From: a virus
IMG/VR virus record: IMGVR_UViG_3300042197_000731
Span: 1-64,000 of that record
DNA length: 64,000 nucleotides
Strand: one strand, 5' to 3'
Shown here: positions 6,031 to 17,834 of the stretch, in pieces
How positions within the stretch are numbered: the stretch's first letter is position 1
Layout: each line of letters opens with the position of its first letter
Notes under the pieces: model-generated
The model's database searches: none
Told to the model about the DNA's origin: nothing
Seen by the model: the letters and a program-made list of their open reading frames with translations, nothing else
Translations under genes and position numbers: made by a program

Positions 6031-7083
6031 TTAGTGTCCTAGTAAACTCTTCTTATCTACGCTCATTGAGCCAGCAGTGGTCTGACCTTCTTTATCATGA
6101 GCCTTTGAATACTCTTTGCCAGCACTGGTCTTGTAACCAGTTTTTCCAGCATTAGCACCAGGACTATTCTGTACCTTACCGATTAGATCTCCACCCTTCT
6201 TTAACAAACCACTTGGCTTGTTGCTTGGAGTTCCCTTTGGATCTGCTTCTGAACCACCGCGAGCGATATTTTGTGTAGTACCACCCATATCGTTCTTACC
6301 AGCAACGATGCTCTTCTTGTTAAGAGTTACAGAACCACCAGCGCCAACTTCGTGCGTATCAGAGTTGTTACCTGGGAAAGGTTCACCAATCTTTTCAACA
6401 TACTCACGAATCCACTCAGCCTCAGTCATTTTCTTTTTGACTTTGGCTTTTTTATCCTTGAGCATCTCCTCTTTTTTCATTTTGGATTCCATTGGCCCGC
6501 TTGGGTTCTTTGGGCTGTGATGATCCATATTCGGTACTACTTCCAAGGTCTCCGGCATCATTTCTTCGTCGCCCATGTCGGCATCCATGTCTCCGCCCAT
6601 ATCTTCGCCGCCTTGATCGCCCATTAGTTCTTCAAACTCACGCTTTAGTTCTTCAAGTGAGTCTTCTAGATCCATAACGCGATCTTCTAAACCTTCATCA
6701 CCATCGTCATCCATGTCCATGTCCATGTCCATGTCGCCTTCAGCGTCGTCCATGTCCATTTCTGCGTCATCCATATCGTCTTCAGCATCATCCATGTCGC
6801 CTTCAGCGTCGTCCATGTCCATCTCTGCGTCATCCATGTCGTCTTCGGCATCGTCCATGTCCATGTCTTCATCTTCGGCTTCTAACATTCCATCTTCATC
6901 AGCAGTGATTTCGTCAACTAAGTCTTCAACTTCGTCACCACCGATTTCAGCCAAATCTTCTTCGTCAATTAGTGACTCATAAATCTGGCGTGAACGCTCA
7001 ACAACTAGTTGGTGAAATAGTTCACGGGCTTTTTCTTCCTGCTCGTTAACAATGTATTCAATTAACTTTTCGTATTTTGACAT
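6031..7083 (-). CDS. Highly acidic prohead core/scaffold-like protein
   Basis: 350 aa with a D/E/M-rich repeat region, located between portal and protease (the gp67/gp68 position). Confidence 0.6.
   Translation of the reverse strand: MSKYEKLIEYIVNEQEEKARELFHQLVVERSRQIYESLIDEEDLAEIGGDEVEDLVDEITADEDGMLEAEDEDMDMDDAEDDMDDAEMDMDDAEGDMDDAEDDMDDAEMDMDDAEGDMDMDMDMDDDGDEGLEDRVMDLEDSLEELKREFEELMGDQGGEDMGGDMDADMGDEEMMPETLEVVPNMDHHSPKNPSGPMESKMKKEEMLKDKKAKVKKKMTEAEWIREYVEKIGEPFPGNNSDTHEVGAGGSVTLNKKSIVAGKNDMGGTTQNIARGGSEADPKGTPSNKPSGLLKKGGDLIGKVQNSPGANAGKTGYKTSAGKEYSKAHDKEGQTTAGSMSVDKKSLLGH
6728..6853. repeat. 63-bp tandem duplication plus (tccatg)n microrepeats within the acidic protein gene
   Basis: 6728-6790 and 6791-6853 are near-identical and encode DAEDDMDDAEMDMDDAEGDMD twice. 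Confidence 0.85.
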
Positions 7084-12167: not shown

Positions 12168-12386
12168 TTGACTCTTTCCAATGAGGAAGTAATCAAACTA
12201 CTTAATGATTACGACCGGGAGTCAAAAGCACTACGAAAATACATATACAAACTAGTCTGGTACATGCGAGGTGGAGTCAATATAGATCAAGGCTTTGAGA
12301 TGGGACATCAAGATCGTGAGATCATCAACGACATCATCAAGGAAAACATAGAGAAAACCAACGAGACTGGTTATCTATTCATTTGA
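12168..12386 (+). CDS. gp51-like baseplate assembly protein (likely expressed as a frameshift fusion)
   Basis: 72 aa, LVWYMRGGV...DREII motif; only a TTG start and no clear RBS. Confidence 0.6.
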   Translation: MTLSNEEVIKLLNDYDRESKALRKYIYKLVWYMRGGVNIDQGFEMGHQDREIINDIIKENIEKTNETGYLFI

Positions 12387-12451
12387 TCAACTCTAGACGC
12401 CATAGTTCATTTATACAACACATTTTTTTACTAGCGTTTTATACCGTATTA

Positions 12452-12529
12452 ATATGAGGTGTGCGAAGCACACCCATATCGTCTGCGTTAATCTTCGTCG
12501 CTATTCGCTCCTGCGATTAACTTGACGAT
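12452..12529. repeat. Two adjacent inverted repeats including a GCGAAGC mini-hairpin
   Basis: atatg-a-ggtgtgc-GAA-gcacacc-catat (12452-12479), and atcgtc..gttaatc/gattaac..gacgat (12478-12529). Confidence 0.7.
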
Positions 12530-12614
12530 CTTTTCGAGAGGAACATACTAGAACCAGGATTCAACCTATTACCATTCATCTAGATTACTGCCTCCCTTTC
12601 GCCCACGCAGGGCG

Positions 12615-12641
12615 AAAAAAAATCGTAGTGATACACTACGA
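12615..12641 (-). terminator. Putative Rho-independent terminator
   Basis: Minus strand UCGUAGUG-UAU-CACUACGA followed by 8 U. Confidence 0.55.
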
Positions 12642-13050
12642 CTTCTATGGTGTTTCATCTGAGTTGACCACCACACAGCATTGGGACTACAACAACATCT
12701 GAATTTTTCAACTCAGGAAATGTAACGTAGGCGGTTGTCCGGTACCTACTCATCCAGTCTTTCTTACAACGGCGGGTTATATTGCTAATGCTGTCCTTCA
12801 ATATAACCGTGCGATATCTCTATCGCGTCTTTTTACCCATAATTCCTGTTCAAACAATCAAACCGCGGGATTAGCGATCTACGTCCTGTCAAGGATAGTG
12901 ATTGAGTTCTCGTAACAGCGACGAGGTTTCCATTCCCTGTGACCCGGCGGTCCAGTTTTAGGGCATCCGAAATTAGGCCGATGCTAGCCATTACTGTTTG
13001 AAAGTTTGCCTGTAGATTTCGCAGATGTGCGGTGCGTCGCTATTAAACCA
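12615..13050 (-). ncRNA. Putative large structured non-coding RNA (boundaries approximate)
   Basis: No ORF; GC-richer than its flanks; many stems (12775-12784/12799-12808, 12811-16/12821-26, 12727-31/12745-49, 12909-12925, 12963-12984); loop pseudoknot 12787-94 with 12675-82; ends in a hairpin plus U8. Confidence 0.6.
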
Positions 13051-13057
13051 TGATGAA

Positions 13058-13474
13058 TTAAATCTTCAATTTACGAACTTTGACCGATATCCATTCGTTG
13101 TACCAGTCATCACTGAGTAAAACACCGTAATCAAATTGATACTTCGCTTCCCAGTAGTTTAGTTCGTTCTTTGAATAACAATACCTTAATATTTGTCTAT
13201 TAAAATTTTCTGAACCTGTTGTTTTTACTTCTTCTGATAATACCGTGTTTGAGCCATAATAAGTTTGCCAGTCACTATCAATTTCATATCTTATTTTAGA
13301 TTTCTTTTTAGTGCCGTTTTTGAGCCTTGATGTTTTTAACCTGATTTTTTTAAATTTAGATAATTTTTTGCCTATATATTTTCGTCCAGTTGACCGATTG
13401 GTTATCATATATACAAAACCAACCACATCTTCTGGTAATGTTTCAATAATTTTTTCTTCAAATATCCAAGTCAC
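13058..13474 (-). CDS. Small GIY-YIG endonuclease (Endo II/DenA-like size)
   Basis: GFVYMITNRSTGRKYIGKK, YYGS, WEAKYQ, WYN motifs; GTG at 13474, just after a perfect TATAAATA. Confidence 0.8.
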   Translation of the reverse strand: MTWIFEEKIIETLPEDVVGFVYMITNRSTGRKYIGKKLSKFKKIRLKTSRLKNGTKKKSKIRYEIDSDWQTYYGSNTVLSEEVKTTGSENFNRQILRYCYSKNELNYWEAKYQFDYGVLLSDDWYNEWISVKVRKLKI

Positions 13475-13478
13475 CAAC

Positions 13479-13486
13479 TATTTATA
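13479..13486 (-). promoter_or_regulatory. T4 late promoter TATAAATA (perfect consensus)
   Basis: The plus strand reads tatttata. Confidence 0.7.
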
Positions 13487-13490
13487 CACA

Positions 13491-15281
13491 TCATATGGTA
13501 TCGGAATTTTTCACAATCTCCACATCAGAACTATATCTAGTAAAGCCACTCTCTTTAACTACGTACATTATATTATTAACTCTACTAGCCAATTCATCTT
13601 TATGGCTAATTAACCATACAGATTTACCGCCTCCTCTTGCCATTTTCTTCAAAATCTTCAGAGAATTTTCCACGCCAGAACTATCCATGCCACTATCTAC
13701 TAGTTCGTCAATGAACAGCAGATTGATAGGCTGATACAAACTTTCCCATACATCACGGAAAGCCCAACTCAGGCTTAGAATAAGACGGTTACGTTCACCA
13801 CGTGAAAGATTATCAAAATCCAACTCACGACCCAGTTCTTCAATTGAAACTGATAGATCATTATTGAACTTAACGGTGTGTGGCAGTTCAATATCGTTCA
13901 AGTAGTACGCAAGTCTGCCGTTCAGGAAGTTTAGATTCTGATCAATAATTTGCTTACGTATAAAACTATCCTTGTTAGTAAGTAACTTGAGCAAGAATTC
14001 TTGATGATCACGAACCCTGGTCAAACTGTTAATCAAATCGTATGAAACTTCTTCAATGCCATTCTTTTCCATTTCTGTAATCTGTTCAGCATATGGGTCA
14101 GTCTCTGACACCTTCTTTTCTATCTGTGAGAATAGATGATTGATACTGCTTTTGTGAGCAACCGCTTCACTTTCCGTGTCATAAAATACAACGGGAGAAA
14201 CACCTAATGAACCGATAGCATCTATCTTCTTATTAACTTCTGCCAAACTTTCTGTTATCCGTTCAAGAAGTTCAGCCGTTTTACTTAAATCTGTTTCTTT
14301 GCGTTCAAGTAGAGTAGCATGATTATCATCATGTAGGGCTTGACCGCAACTGTGACACTTATGATCTTTCAGTGACTGAACATCAGCATTCAATTGAAAT
14401 AAAGTTTTTTCCTCTCGGACAAAATCCTTCTTCAGTGACTTCTTTGTTTTTTCTAAGTCTGTTAGATTTGTTTCCTTGACTTTATATGCTGCCAACTGCT
14501 TATGTGAGGCTAACTCAATATCAATATCAAGTTTAAGTAGTTCATCGTAAGCAGCAGTTAATTCTGTTAGTTCGTCATCATGCTTCTTTTGCCACAGTTT
14601 TTGTCTACGTTTGGTAGAATCAATTTGTTCTTGAATTCTGGTATTAGCATCTTTGACTGCTTTGATACGAAATTCTTCTTGCTGGATAGCATCCTTGGTG
14701 ATGCGGATCTGTTCTTTAAGACCTTCCGCTTTCTCACTCAGTAAGGTGATACCTAGCAATTGTTCAATGATAGTTCTTTGATCGGCCGCTTTTAGGCTTA
14801 GAAAAGGTTCTGTGTACGTGTTAAGTGCCACGATATGCTTAAACATATCATGGCGCATGTTTATCAAACGTTCAATTTCCTGTTGCGTTTCTCTACTGTC
14901 ACCCTGACTATTGTCGTCAGAACTTTCCATCTCACGATCATTGACAAAGAATTTCAGGACGTTAGGTTTACGCCCACGTTCAATTCTGTAAGATGTATTA
15001 CCACATTCAAAATCAACAGTTACCAGCATATTTTTGCCGTTGGTTTTGTTGATCAGATTATCTTTTTTGATGTTAGTGAGGGCTTGCCCGTAGAACGCAT
15101 AACTTAGGGCATTGATGATAGAAGTCTTGCCCGTGCCATTACGACTACCAGCGTCATCGCCACCTAAGTCAATGTTACTGCCTAACACCAAAGTTAAATT
15201 ATCTCTATCAAAATTTACGGCCTGTGTTTGATTGCCTATTGATAGAAAATTTTTCGCGGTGATGTTCTTGATTTTTAGCAT
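13491..15281 (-). CDS. gp46: Recombination endonuclease ATPase subunit (gp46/SbcC/Rad50-like)
   Basis: KNFLSIGN, Walker A NGTGKT, zinc hook CHSC, signature LSRGE, Walker B LLFIDE, ISH. Confidence 0.93.
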   Translation of the reverse strand: MLKIKNITAKNFLSIGNQTQAVNFDRDNLTLVLGSNIDLGGDDAGSRNGTGKTSIINALSYAFYGQALTNIKKDNLINKTNGKNMLVTVDFECGNTSYRIERGRKPNVLKFFVNDREMESSDDNSQGDSRETQQEIERLINMRHDMFKHIVALNTYTEPFLSLKAADQRTIIEQLLGITLLSEKAEGLKEQIRITKDAIQQEEFRIKAVKDANTRIQEQIDSTKRRQKLWQKKHDDELTELTAAYDELLKLDIDIELASHKQLAAYKVKETNLTDLEKTKKSLKKDFVREEKTLFQLNADVQSLKDHKCHSCGQALHDDNHATLLERKETDLSKTAELLERITESLAEVNKKIDAIGSLGVSPVVFYDTESEAVAHKSSINHLFSQIEKKVSETDPYAEQITEMEKNGIEEVSYDLINSLTRVRDHQEFLLKLLTNKDSFIRKQIIDQNLNFLNGRLAYYLNDIELPHTVKFNNDLSVSIEELGRELDFDNLSRGERNRLILSLSWAFRDVWESLYQPINLLFIDELVDSGMDSSGVENSLKILKKMARGGGKSVWLISHKDELASRVNNIMYVVKESGFTRYSSDVEIVKNSDTI

Positions 15282-16357: not shown

Positions 16358-17218
16358 TCAATCTTCGTAAAATCCACTTCCCGTGTGCATACCCTGCCTG
16401 GTATATGAAGGATTTAGGTTGTTGAGTTCCAGGATATCATCACGTAAATTTTGATTTCGTTTTTCTATGTTCAAAACTCTAGTAAACGCATTCGTGATAG
16501 CAGCCGTATAATAAGCAAATGGATTCAAACTTTTGCTTTCGTCAAACTGTAGTCCAATCTGACTTAATTGTAGTAGGGCTTGGCTACGCATTTCATCATT
16601 GTAGGTATAGCCCCGCCAGTTACTACGAGTAGCATACCGTTCACATAACTTAATGAACATGTGAGCCAACTTGTTAGTCATCTTTCCGTGATCCTTGCTG
16701 AATTGACCATCAATTAGAGAACCCTTCCAGTGACTTTTGCCGACTAGATATGGCTTATCGTTATCGCCTAATTTGTAGTGTACGAATGGTGGAAAATTAA
16801 CTTTTATGTATTTCGTGGGTTTGGTATCTTCGTCATCATATTCCGTGACGATGATGTCCTCGTCTTCTTCAACTTCTTTTGCTTTACTGATTTTTGCTAT
16901 ATCACTAGGAACATGTTCCCAGGACATGACTCTGAATACCAAATCAGTTCTTTTTATGTCTTCTTCTTTTATTTGAAAATCATCTAAACGCTTTTTCTCC
17001 CCACTTTCAGCCGCACTCAGATCATATTGTAGTTTGGTCAATCGTTCAGCACGATTTTTTATTGCTTCTACAATTTTATCTTCGATGATATCTTCAACGC
17101 TGCTTAGAATAATATCGTAATCAGCACAGGTAGCATCCATATAGCAGCAATAAGAATTCTTGCTCTTGTGTATTTCTTTTAGTATATCTTTATTGTTGAG
17201 ATAATTTGTTTTGGTCAT
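16358..17218 (-). CDS. gp55: Late transcription sigma factor (gp55-like)
   Basis: NYLNNKDIL, ERYATRSNWRGYTYNDEM, FDESKSLNPFAYYT; start taken at MTKTNY (17218). Confidence 0.85.
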   Translation of the reverse strand: MTKTNYLNNKDILKEIHKSKNSYCCYMDATCADYDIILSSVEDIIEDKIVEAIKNRAERLTKLQYDLSAAESGEKKRLDDFQIKEEDIKRTDLVFRVMSWEHVPSDIAKISKAKEVEEDEDIIVTEYDDEDTKPTKYIKVNFPPFVHYKLGDNDKPYLVGKSHWKGSLIDGQFSKDHGKMTNKLAHMFIKLCERYATRSNWRGYTYNDEMRSQALLQLSQIGLQFDESKSLNPFAYYTAAITNAFTRVLNIEKRNQNLRDDILELNNLNPSYTRQGMHTGSGFYED

Positions 17219-17834
17219 TAAAATTTTCCTTTTTATGTTTACATTGATCAAAATGCCATCGTTTCATCTGAGGCAATCCGCCTATTGTCTCGCAGTGAGG
17301 GCACTGAATTTTTGGTTTTTCTTTCCGCAATTTTTGTTTAGTTTCTTCGGTATGTTTTGGACCATTTTTTCCTATCTTTGAAACTGATATATTCTTTTTC
17401 TGATCTGTACTTCTTTTTTTACCTTTGTTCGCAATAGAAATTTTTTGCTTGGTTTCATTAGATAATGGTTCTCTCTTACGATTTTTTGCGGCAAGGGATC
17501 TCTTTTCCTTAGTTTCCTTGGACTCGTTACATTTTGCTTTTGCCATTTTTTCTCTAGTCTGGGGTGAAGGATTAGAAATCCCCTCACCCCCGTCTGTCAT
17601 ATTAATCAAAATGCCAGTGCCCAAATCTTTTCTTCCGTATTTGGAAATAAGTAATTTTTCTAGCTCTAATGCCTCAGATTCGAGAAGATTTGTTTTGACA
17701 AATCTTATTTTAGATATGTCATTTGGCATGCCTCTGTTGTGTTTAACAAACGCTCTACGCCCGCACCCTTTTCCAATGTAATAAGGACTTCCGTCATTTC
17801 TTACATACTCGTAAACATAAAAAATATTTTTCAT
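17190..17834 (-). CDS. GIY-YIG homing endonuclease with NUMOD3-like repeats
   Basis: FYVYEY..PYYIGKG, LINMTDGGEG, repeated ETKEKRS/ETKQKIS/HTEETKQKL, C-terminal CPHC..RWHFDQC; overlaps the gp55 start. Confidence 0.85.
   Translation of the reverse strand: MKNIFYVYEYVRNDGSPYYIGKGCGRRAFVKHNRGMPNDISKIRFVKTNLLESEALELEKLLISKYGRKDLGTGILINMTDGGEGISNPSPQTREKMAKAKCNESKETKEKRSLAAKNRKREPLSNETKQKISIANKGKKRSTDQKKNISVSKIGKNGPKHTEETKQKLRKEKPKIQCPHCETIGGLPQMKRWHFDQCKHKKENFNDQNKLSQQ

Follow-up and report, generated by a model that had tools for sequence, protein, structure and literature searches.

The window analysed here, a stretch of 64,000 nucleotides (positions 1 to 64,000 of the IMG/VR virus record IMGVR_UViG_3300042197_000731), carries on its minus strand a structured RNA of about 430 nt (12570..12997, both ends being taken from conservation) next to a gene for a small GIY-YIG nuclease. 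The 5′ third of this RNA was already known as the Polynucleobacter-1 motif (RF01718), whereas its full length, a short word that is present twice in its 3′ part and changes in both copies together (the twin word), and its link to chromosomal islands are new. Judging from its distribution, the nuclease is a conserved single-copy neighbour of the RNA in phages and not its obligate partner.

The RNA, its family and its fold

A search of the window against Rfam returned a single match, Polynucleobacter-1 at 12852..12989 on the minus strand, which scored 114.8 bits (E 3.6e-24; gathering cut-off 37) and covered positions 1-141 of the 141 positions of the model. This domain is merely the 5′ third of the minus-strand RNA. 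The original prediction, made from the sequence without database searches, had described a large ornate RNA of this size on the strand of the nuclease gene, which proved right, and had assigned it to no known family, which did not hold: by its 5′ third the RNA is a member of a known family and so not a new one. For GOLLD, ROOL, HEARO, OLE, group I and II introns, RNase P and tmRNA, the window contained no match at gathering score and the region 12300-13600 none even at E values of up to 10; ARAGORN reported 0 tRNA or tmRNA genes in the window. The description of the Polynucleobacter-1 family reportedly mentions a nearby gene resembling a cyanophage gene, and the neighbour may thus have been noticed at that time. 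In the table of the 2010 paper the motif is classified as “probably RNA, probably cis-regulatory,” with occurrence in Burkholderiales and fresh water and no function given there (PMC2864571). Descriptions of the full-length RNA, of the twin word or of the island link did not turn up in literature searches, whose coverage leaves out most subscription journals; two genome papers list RF01718 once, and the terms Polynucleobacter, GIY and endonuclease are absent from the Minerva preprint (10.64898/2026.09.22.753630).

Relatives were collected from two sides. Using the GIY-YIG protein, 80 viral loci were fetched, 54 of which match the intergenic gap of the window (the window serving as single query), mostly over gap positions 45-490, and a pattern scan starting from the RNA gave 119 loci. 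Together, both sets yielded 160 full-length copies, of which 119 remained below 92% identity (mean identity 66%), and covariation was read from a structure-blind alignment of these 119 relatives. Judged by the compensatory changes and the five pseudoknots found in this alignment, the RNA is real.

The top covarying pairs stack into helices that include these five pseudoknots. Two of them lie in the 5′ part (12915..12997, minus strand) and are missing from the Rfam structure line, namely 12997-94 with the loop 12915-18 (12997-12915 is AU40/GC40/GU16) and 12988-87 with 12977-78 (12988-12977 is GC85/AU32), and another one joins 12869-68 to 12836-37. A further one had been proposed by the original prediction: the perfect 10-bp stem 12775-84/12799-808 is present, its loop at 12787-94 is the exact complement of 12675-82, and two-sided changes occur in 13 of 13 pairs of the long stem (12775..12808, minus strand) as well as in 7 of 7 pairs of the pseudoknot that its loop forms with 12675-12681 (12794-88/12675-81; 12790-12679 is CG101/UA18 and 12789-12680 is GC88/AU29/GU2). 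The most conserved core (12728..12773, minus strand; GCCGUUG ... AGGUACCGGACAACCGCC) was seen in all subtypes met and holds a 5-bp pseudoknot between 12770-66 and 12734-38. Compared to the Polynucleobacter-1 model, the five pseudoknots, the core, the twin word and the distribution over islands and phages lie outside the model or are not drawn in it.

On realignment of 60 of the 119 sequences, pairing is kept in 93.7% of the cells and two-sided changes are seen in 58 of 77 pairs, a level reached by 0 of 500 shuffles and compared with 35-45% for slid structures; since the structure was derived from those sequences, the test is tilted towards it. Compared with its shuffles, the minus strand has the better fold (z -2.93, 0/100), the values for the plus strand being z -1.80 and 4/100. 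Among the covarying pairs, 263 G-U combinations stand against 53 A-C combinations, which places the RNA on the strand of the nuclease gene. At least 97% conservation was found for 83 of 463 alignment columns, and several covariations are not of the Watson-Crick type.

Two elements of the original prediction turned out to be lineage-specific. The hairpin followed by U8 (12615..12641, minus strand) does exist, but among the rows seen it is confined to the window and its closest relatives L001 and L002, so that it is not the 3′ end or terminator of the family, and the complementarity of 12659-67 to 12708-16 is present but falls into a variable insertion outside the family structure. The other stems (12811-26, 12727-49, 12884-95, 12909-25 and 12963-84) and both copies of a TTCATCT(A)GA motif (~12575 and ~12654) were found where they had been placed. 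Divergent subtypes have the 3′ core in common and differ in their 5′ parts, some being without Rfam match, and at least five RNA subtypes exist across phages and islands. Loci L015, L019, L025, L045, L057, L211 and L217 combine the same 3′ core and twin repeats with another 5′ domain, for which no Rfam match was obtained in those scanned. Contigs of 418 nt and 264 nt from RNA-seq runs span the transition from the gene to the RNA and another one covers both repeats unbroken; as contigs only, they give no strand, ends or level, may be DNA, and are not counted as evidence.

The twin word

On the minus strand of the window, the word AGAUGAA occurs at 12660-12654 and again at 12581-12575. Repeat 1 (12652..12674) is composed of a GUGAC-like box, a spacer, ACUC and the word, and repeat 2 (12573..12596) of the box, a spacer, AUCU and the word, the general layout being GUGAC-N5-7-A(CUC or UCU)-word. 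A conserved hairpin (12598..12616, minus strand), whose changes point to folding of the sense strand (G-U 61 vs. A-C 17), separates the two repeats. The 6-nt word varies between lineages, yet both copies match each other: in the 119 relatives, equivalent positions covary by identity (GG70/AA49, GG74/AA45 and UU74/AA35/GG6, with 4 exceptions). On a tree built without the repeats, word position 1 (GG70/AA49) underwent 20 changes, all joint and with no intermediate, and word position 5 underwent seven, again all joint.

Equality of the two copies is also found in more distant relatives. The 120 loci of a second phage subtype gave 59 distinct sequences with both repeats parsed, in which the words are equal at positions 1-6 in 59 of 59, at position 7 in 53 and at position 8 in 36 cases. 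In island RNAs, the first six letters are equal in 58 of 64 parsed rows (2 of 66 were unparsed). The words comprise GGAUGA, AGAUAA, AGCGAA, AGAGAA, AUCAAA, GGUGAA, ACCACA, GCCACA, AGCACA, AGUACA and ACAUGA, and all four bases occur as like-with-like across them. Repeat-to-repeat unit lengths are 54, 57, 59, 71, 72, and 79 nt, mostly not multiples of three.

No third RNA column tracks the word (mutual information of 0.98 for the twin pair vs. 0.21 for the next one), and no residue of the nuclease does so either (0.24). Within about 1.2-1.7 kb no covarying complement of the word was found (44 own vs. 38.8 foreign matches), the RNA, the gene and the flanks contain no cis partner for it, and in four phage records no inverted-repeat target rose above the controls. 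The identity pattern is as would be expected from a Watson-Crick reading of the complement of one copy by the other copy, and the sole complement found for the word is the template strand of the DNA, or else a strand copied from the RNA. Five of the six word mismatches in islands (from four distinct loci) have G in word 1 and A in word 2, which, with word 1 reading the DNA at word 2, would give a G-T wobble.

Direct contacts between the repeats were considered and rejected. Antiparallel pairing, or a self-complementary dimer site (the palindrome AUCUAGAU), does not agree with the variants GAAU and GCAU, which are identical but not complementary, and most words of the other subtypes are not palindromic. 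Pairing of the two spacers is weak, with -1.41 kcal/mol for the own sequences vs. -1.26 kcal/mol (sd 0.11) for shuffled ones.

The nuclease gene, the islands and the locus

The gene upstream of the RNA (13058..13474, minus strand) encodes a stand-alone GIY-YIG protein of 138 aa (SegE_GIY-YIG PF19835, phrog_447) with a long basic beta-hairpin at residues ~40-66. Its structural model (predicted local distance difference test, pLDDT, 88.8) has its best fold match in the I-TevI catalytic domain (Z 8.2, root-mean-square deviation 2.8, 82 aligned), and Y22, Y33, E109, and N126 are invariant in 86 of 86 homologues. The family consists of single-domain proteins of 129-148 aa without C-terminal DNA-binding domain or tail, and 14 K/R are located in a 31-residue hairpin segment. 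The median ratio of non-synonymous to synonymous substitutions (dN/dS) is 0.15 over 270 pairs, no broken copy was seen among the 86, and two near-complete genomes contain the gene as a single copy. The label “NAD synthetase,” carried by phrog_447 and by many homologues in GenBank, does not fit the protein, which is a GIY-YIG domain. The SegE_GIY-YIG domain, the I-TevI-like fold, the Tyr/Tyr/Glu/Asn set and a T4-type late promoter are reminiscent of the Seg-type enzymes (SegE, T4). In contrast to these, the family found here is a catalytic domain only and shows no patchy presence, empty alleles or decay, although allele swaps within the family occur.

In the phages the gene is tightly linked to the RNA. 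It was present upstream in 71 of 73 RNA-first loci with at least 900 nt of upstream sequence, and since the remaining two are without RNA (profile scores of 11 and 0), this corresponds to 71 of 71 true RNA loci. Being a catalytic domain only, under purifying selection and with a place at each of these true RNA loci, it has the behaviour of a core gene. Direct adjacency was observed in 76 of 86 cases for the GIY-YIG gene and the RNA, in 10 of 52 for gp46 and the GIY-YIG gene, and in 35 of 62 for the RNA and the gene labelled gp51 (see below); in the ten cases without adjacency of gene and RNA, unrelated same-strand genes or a duplication lie in between. Open reading frames (ORFs) of radical-SAM or sugar-modifying type, labelled by sequence appearance, are often inserted between gp46, the GIY-YIG gene and the RNA at L007, L051, L068, L076, and others, and at L013 (3438-3574) the 3′ end of a second GIY-YIG copy (RVHGSH codons) is left between gene and RNA as a trace of allele replacement.

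The second subtype, which is largely divergent, gives a different arrangement. Of its 75 loci, 27 have the gene upstream on the same strand, 39 divergent, one elsewhere, and in 8 it is missing; the gene is thus present in 67 of 75 loci and beside the 5′ end of the RNA, in either orientation, in 66. The original prediction had the RNA apparently co-transcribed with the nuclease, as a candidate nuclease-RNA system. Co-transcription is not general, since the gene is inverted relative to the RNA in more than half of these loci, and the co-occurrence of gene and RNA holds in phage loci, while their overall distribution is partly independent. A dedicated pair of nuclease and RNA was not supported. 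Agreement between the protein and RNA trees (0.25-0.37) lies below that of the RNA with gp46, gp26, and gp51 (0.43-0.58), and nuclease alleles move between RNA lineages (L087, L158). In 6 of 6 cultured T4-like phages examined, the gene family is present with no room for the RNA on either side, and other viral loci also contain the family without the RNA. Distant homologues occur in 135 records of the GenBank phage collection; searches for the RNA in cultured phages or plasmids gave no match.

The RNA without the nuclease, in turn, is found on chromosomal islands. RF01718 scored above its cut-off in 13 of 121 genomes of the genus Polynucleobacter, and the 15 loci fetched comprised 2 of phage type, 1 below the cut-off and 12 chromosomal island copies. 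The latter have no GIY-YIG gene, are accompanied by a divergent DUF6641 gene and tyrosine integrases (PF00589), and carry the full RNA where the contig allows. A TAAATA box, which also precedes the phage’s own genes, stands 13-48 nt upstream of the RNA in 49 of 49 island copies scoring >400 bits, and many island copies have the RNA start 7 nt behind the box. The corresponding slot of other DUF6641 islands is taken by an ORF that has HUH-like and YxxK motifs, matches PF23343 at E 3-5e-4, under its cut-off, and has its first hits in the Atlas at 0.97, a rolling-circle Rep cluster being at rank 2. Across 133 partly redundant island loci, the RNA was found in 75 and Rep in 10, never together, and this GIY-YIG family in 0. 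Furthermore, the islands encode a homologue of the phage clamp loader (phrog_168). With their integrase, helper-type promoter and helper-related replication gene, the islands are candidate satellites of these phages. Only in near relatives are DUF6641 and the RNA closely linked (55 of 59 metagenome loci, with weak 3′-only matches >30 bits included, vs. 3 of 33 more distant genome loci), and the island-type core pattern was not found in viral contigs. An assignment of DUF6641 to a GIY-like or other known fold was dismissed, its model (pLDDT 85.6) giving nothing above Z 5.5 or E 0.001.

Several further observations were made on these islands. Small islands with DUF6641, one or two tyrosine integrases, a clamp-loader-like AAA ATPase, TAAATA and variable cargo (L355-L360; L224-L238, L240-L354) occur in genomes of the genus Polynucleobacter and related ones, a single genome having up to four copies of DUF6641. 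The start MK(L/I)xE(I/V) is found in some island ORFs as well as in several TAAATA-driven phage ORFs, and it may be a head-targeting signal. A second conserved non-coding element of ~370 nt, which has the 3′ hairpin tail in common with the main RNA, follows a small basic ORF in the same slot (L241, L242, L248, L266, L288, L314, L316, L328, L332, L338, L343, L345) and had no Rfam match in the four loci scanned. At L246, L256, and L260, TAAATA is followed by a ~200-nt leader of inverted GTTGC/GCAAC and AGTTAC/GTAACT motifs and then by a 170-aa ORF. The 5′ part of the island RNA at L258 and L262 resembles the phage subtype of L020 and L088, which suggests an exchange of RNA subtypes between phages and islands.

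The window comes from a virus record of 123 kb that is 35% complete and belongs to a large T4-like phage, for which PHROGs identifies portal, late sigma factor, gp47, gp46, and baseplate hub. The RNA lies in the gap 12387-13057, between the nuclease gene and a convergent 72-aa ORF. As stated by the original prediction, this gap is the largest of the window and richer in GC: it measures 671 nt without ORFs of at least 65 aa (next 212 nt), with a GC content of 0.43-0.47 compared to 0.29-0.37 in the nuclease gene. The 72-aa ORF (12168..12386, plus strand) follows a gp26-like baseplate hub gene and is a conserved neighbour without family match, its label gp51 being that of the original prediction and not from any search. 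Upstream lies the gp46 (SbcC-like) gene (13491..15281, minus strand; phrog_77). The predicted T4-type late promoter TATAAATA was found at 13486-79 (minus strand), 4 nt before the leaderless GTG start of the nuclease gene, and a TAANTA-N3-7-start layout precedes 14 ORFs in the genome record of the window. In line with the earlier reading, a simple scan detected no terminator between the gene and the RNA. Elsewhere in the window, the start of the late sigma gene is overlapped by a second GIY-YIG gene (17190-17834, minus strand), an ordinary homing endonuclease that has a NUMOD3 tail and a TAAATA box of its own, and a low-complexity acidic repeat (D/M/E-rich; 6687-6982) lies within a 350-aa ORF (6031-7083).

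Possible functions of the RNA

The 3′ end of the RNA is followed by a tail of short perfect hairpins (12430..12570, with 12510-26, 12487-505, and GCGAAGC at 12463-69 on the plus strand). In the relatives, the ~100 nt after repeat 2 are rich in DNA mini-hairpin loops of the type C-GNA-G on both strands, with 8.7 and 8.0 loops per kb on the two strands compared to 0.5-0.6 in the flanks and 0.3-0.5 in the RNA core, i.e., an about 15-fold enrichment, and at least one mini-hairpin occurs in 106 of 119 loci. The first tail hairpin has 37 G-U vs. 41 A-C changes. Such mini-hairpins are described as far more stable as DNA than as RNA and as present at priming sites on the single-stranded DNA of phages (PMC13037366).

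From the observed fold, strand, promoter-like box, twin word, neighbours and distribution, we infer, tentatively and as the preferred one among several possibilities, a cis-acting RNA-plus-DNA module that would make a DNA end or primer at its own locus to start replication or packaging; priming of replication, the third option of the original prediction, comes close to this. The RNA would be made from the TAAATA promoter by the TAAATA-specific polymerase of the phage, which in this phage would make it the 3′ portion of the nuclease mRNA. Its pseudoknotted core would present word 1, and word 1 would pair, 54-79 nt further downstream and beyond the hairpin, with the template strand of the DNA at word 2, as no strand was found to follow every change of the word except the DNA complement of the other copy. 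A nick or 3′ end would be made at word 2, either by the RNA core or by the GIY-YIG protein, the likely helper in the phage, and the exposed single strands would fold the mini-hairpin tail. Islands parasitising these phages would hold a copy of their own instead of a rolling-circle Rep and could borrow any protein needed, such as the GIY-YIG protein, from the helper. One copy of the module was found per near-complete genome. Transcripts of ~500 nt that fold and act in cis on their own DNA to start synthesis are known from ColE1 (RNA II) and from the R-loop origins of T4, and these may be the closest working analogue. Compared to them, the RNA described here has a far more conserved tertiary core, a late-type promoter and a presumed pairing at a second, downstream site instead of plain re-annealing.

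A number of points weigh against such a module. In the near-complete genomes G003 and G004, mini-hairpin clusters of equal size occur elsewhere and the GC skew extremes are not at the RNA; in all three records examined, GC skew tracks the coding strand (r 0.57-0.87). One island mismatch, with C in word 1 and U in word 2, fits the opposite direction of reading. Other cargo is likewise found in the island slot (a different RNA with a small ORF; leaders rich in repeats), so that the RNA and Rep need not be equivalent, and the Rep of the slot could be an anti-phage nickase. What reads the island TAAATA boxes might be an island regulator instead of a phage sigma factor. For a nascent RNA to pair with its template no second copy is required, which leaves the reach to word 2 unexplained, and T4 origins use middle, not late, promoters. 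More doubtful is the far-reaching form of the idea, a new self-targeting RNA class in T4-like jumbo phages and their chromosomal satellites in which a ~430-nt ribozyme-like fold would find the twin of its freely variable 6-nt word in its own DNA and nick or prime there, taking the place of a protein Rep either by itself or together with a GIY-YIG subunit that it borrows.

The size of the RNA, its five pseudoknots and its phage location match the ROOL and GOLLD classes, which are large, multi-pseudoknot, phage-borne and of unknown function (PMC12286853). An RNA-only assembly of this type, in which the repeats would form a pseudo-two-fold module with like-with-like pairs within the chain or between the chains of a cage and the nuclease would be a neighbour lending its promoter, is nevertheless unlikely. 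It would account for a pairwise coupling without third partner, as from direct contact, for the RNA standing alone behind its own promoter box on islands, and for the non-Watson-Crick covariations, which point to tertiary contacts. Six consecutive like-with-like pairs would, however, have to accept A, C, G, and U equally, and we know of no such helix at neutral pH; the exchange of Rep and RNA and the two-stranded mini-hairpin tail would also stay unexplained. Unlike ROOL and GOLLD, the RNA has no Rfam match to these families, no tRNA in the window, a fixed link to a nuclease gene or an integrase island, and the twin word. Rather unlikely is the ribonucleoprotein (RNP) of the original prediction, in which the GIY-YIG protein would bind the RNA via its basic hairpin and cut host or rival DNA or RNA chosen by the twin words, with islands carrying the RNA to hijack or titrate the phage enzyme. 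The adjacency of gene and RNA, in both orientations at the 5′ end, and the properties of the protein (single copy, purifying selection, invariant catalytic-type residues, the basic segment, the lack of a DNA-binding tail) are in favour of it. Weighing against it are the RNA and the gene family each occurring alone, the exchange of alleles and the lower tree agreement, and the missing inverted-repeat targets in four genomes, six bases offering little specificity. A small nuclease gene beside a large pseudoknotted RNA recalls IscB with its omegaRNA/HEARO. OMEGA systems have a RuvC/HNH nuclease, a transposon, strict co-occurrence of RNA and nuclease and a variable guide; here, a GIY-YIG nuclease is encoded once, at a fixed locus of the phage, the RNA and the nuclease are each also seen without the other, and no long variable guide was found, only a variable twin word of 6-7 nt with no target in cis or as inverted repeat.

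A variable stretch that lies 3′ of a pseudoknot and has short direct repeats on its two sides is also the layout described for telomerase RNA and for the DRT2 non-coding RNA (PMC12039810). A template of this kind, on which a polymerase would copy word 2, the hairpin and word 1, realign on word 2 and produce tandem copies, is very unlikely: the reverse transcriptase PF00078 was found in 0 of 5 phage records, two of them >90% complete (the search did not extend to host genomes), the sequence of the repeats varies freely, the unit length is not fixed and mostly not a multiple of three, and five of the six island mismatches would be C-A in that direction. We give just as little weight to a cis-regulatory or self-processing RNA (antiterminator, mRNA-end ribozyme or sponge) whose repeats would be sites for one host or phage protein, in spite of the classification in the 2010 table (PMC2864571) and of a column conservation as in ribozymes. 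The next gene is often convergent, which leaves nothing to regulate downstream, and the protein and both sites would have had to change together about 20 times. The 3′ half of a group I intron was rejected because there is no Rfam match, the upstream gp46 gene is whole and the next gene is convergent. A late promoter, a GIY-YIG gene and a structured RNA together do recall the td intron of T4.

The motif listed since 2010 without function is thus a fragment of one of the larger and more conserved RNAs of bacterial viruses. Whatever the mechanism, the twin word offers a direct experimental handle, and the island copies in a culturable genus, behind their own promoter box, make the RNA testable without the uncultured phage. 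If it formed a cage or an RNP, it would still be a new target for the structure determination of large RNAs. If the cis-acting reading is true, the RNA would represent an RNA-run start of DNA replication or packaging, together with an undescribed satellite family of T4-like jumbo phages, and, should the self-targeting class exist, a natural RNA initiator of replication or packaging that may be re-targeted by changing six bases.

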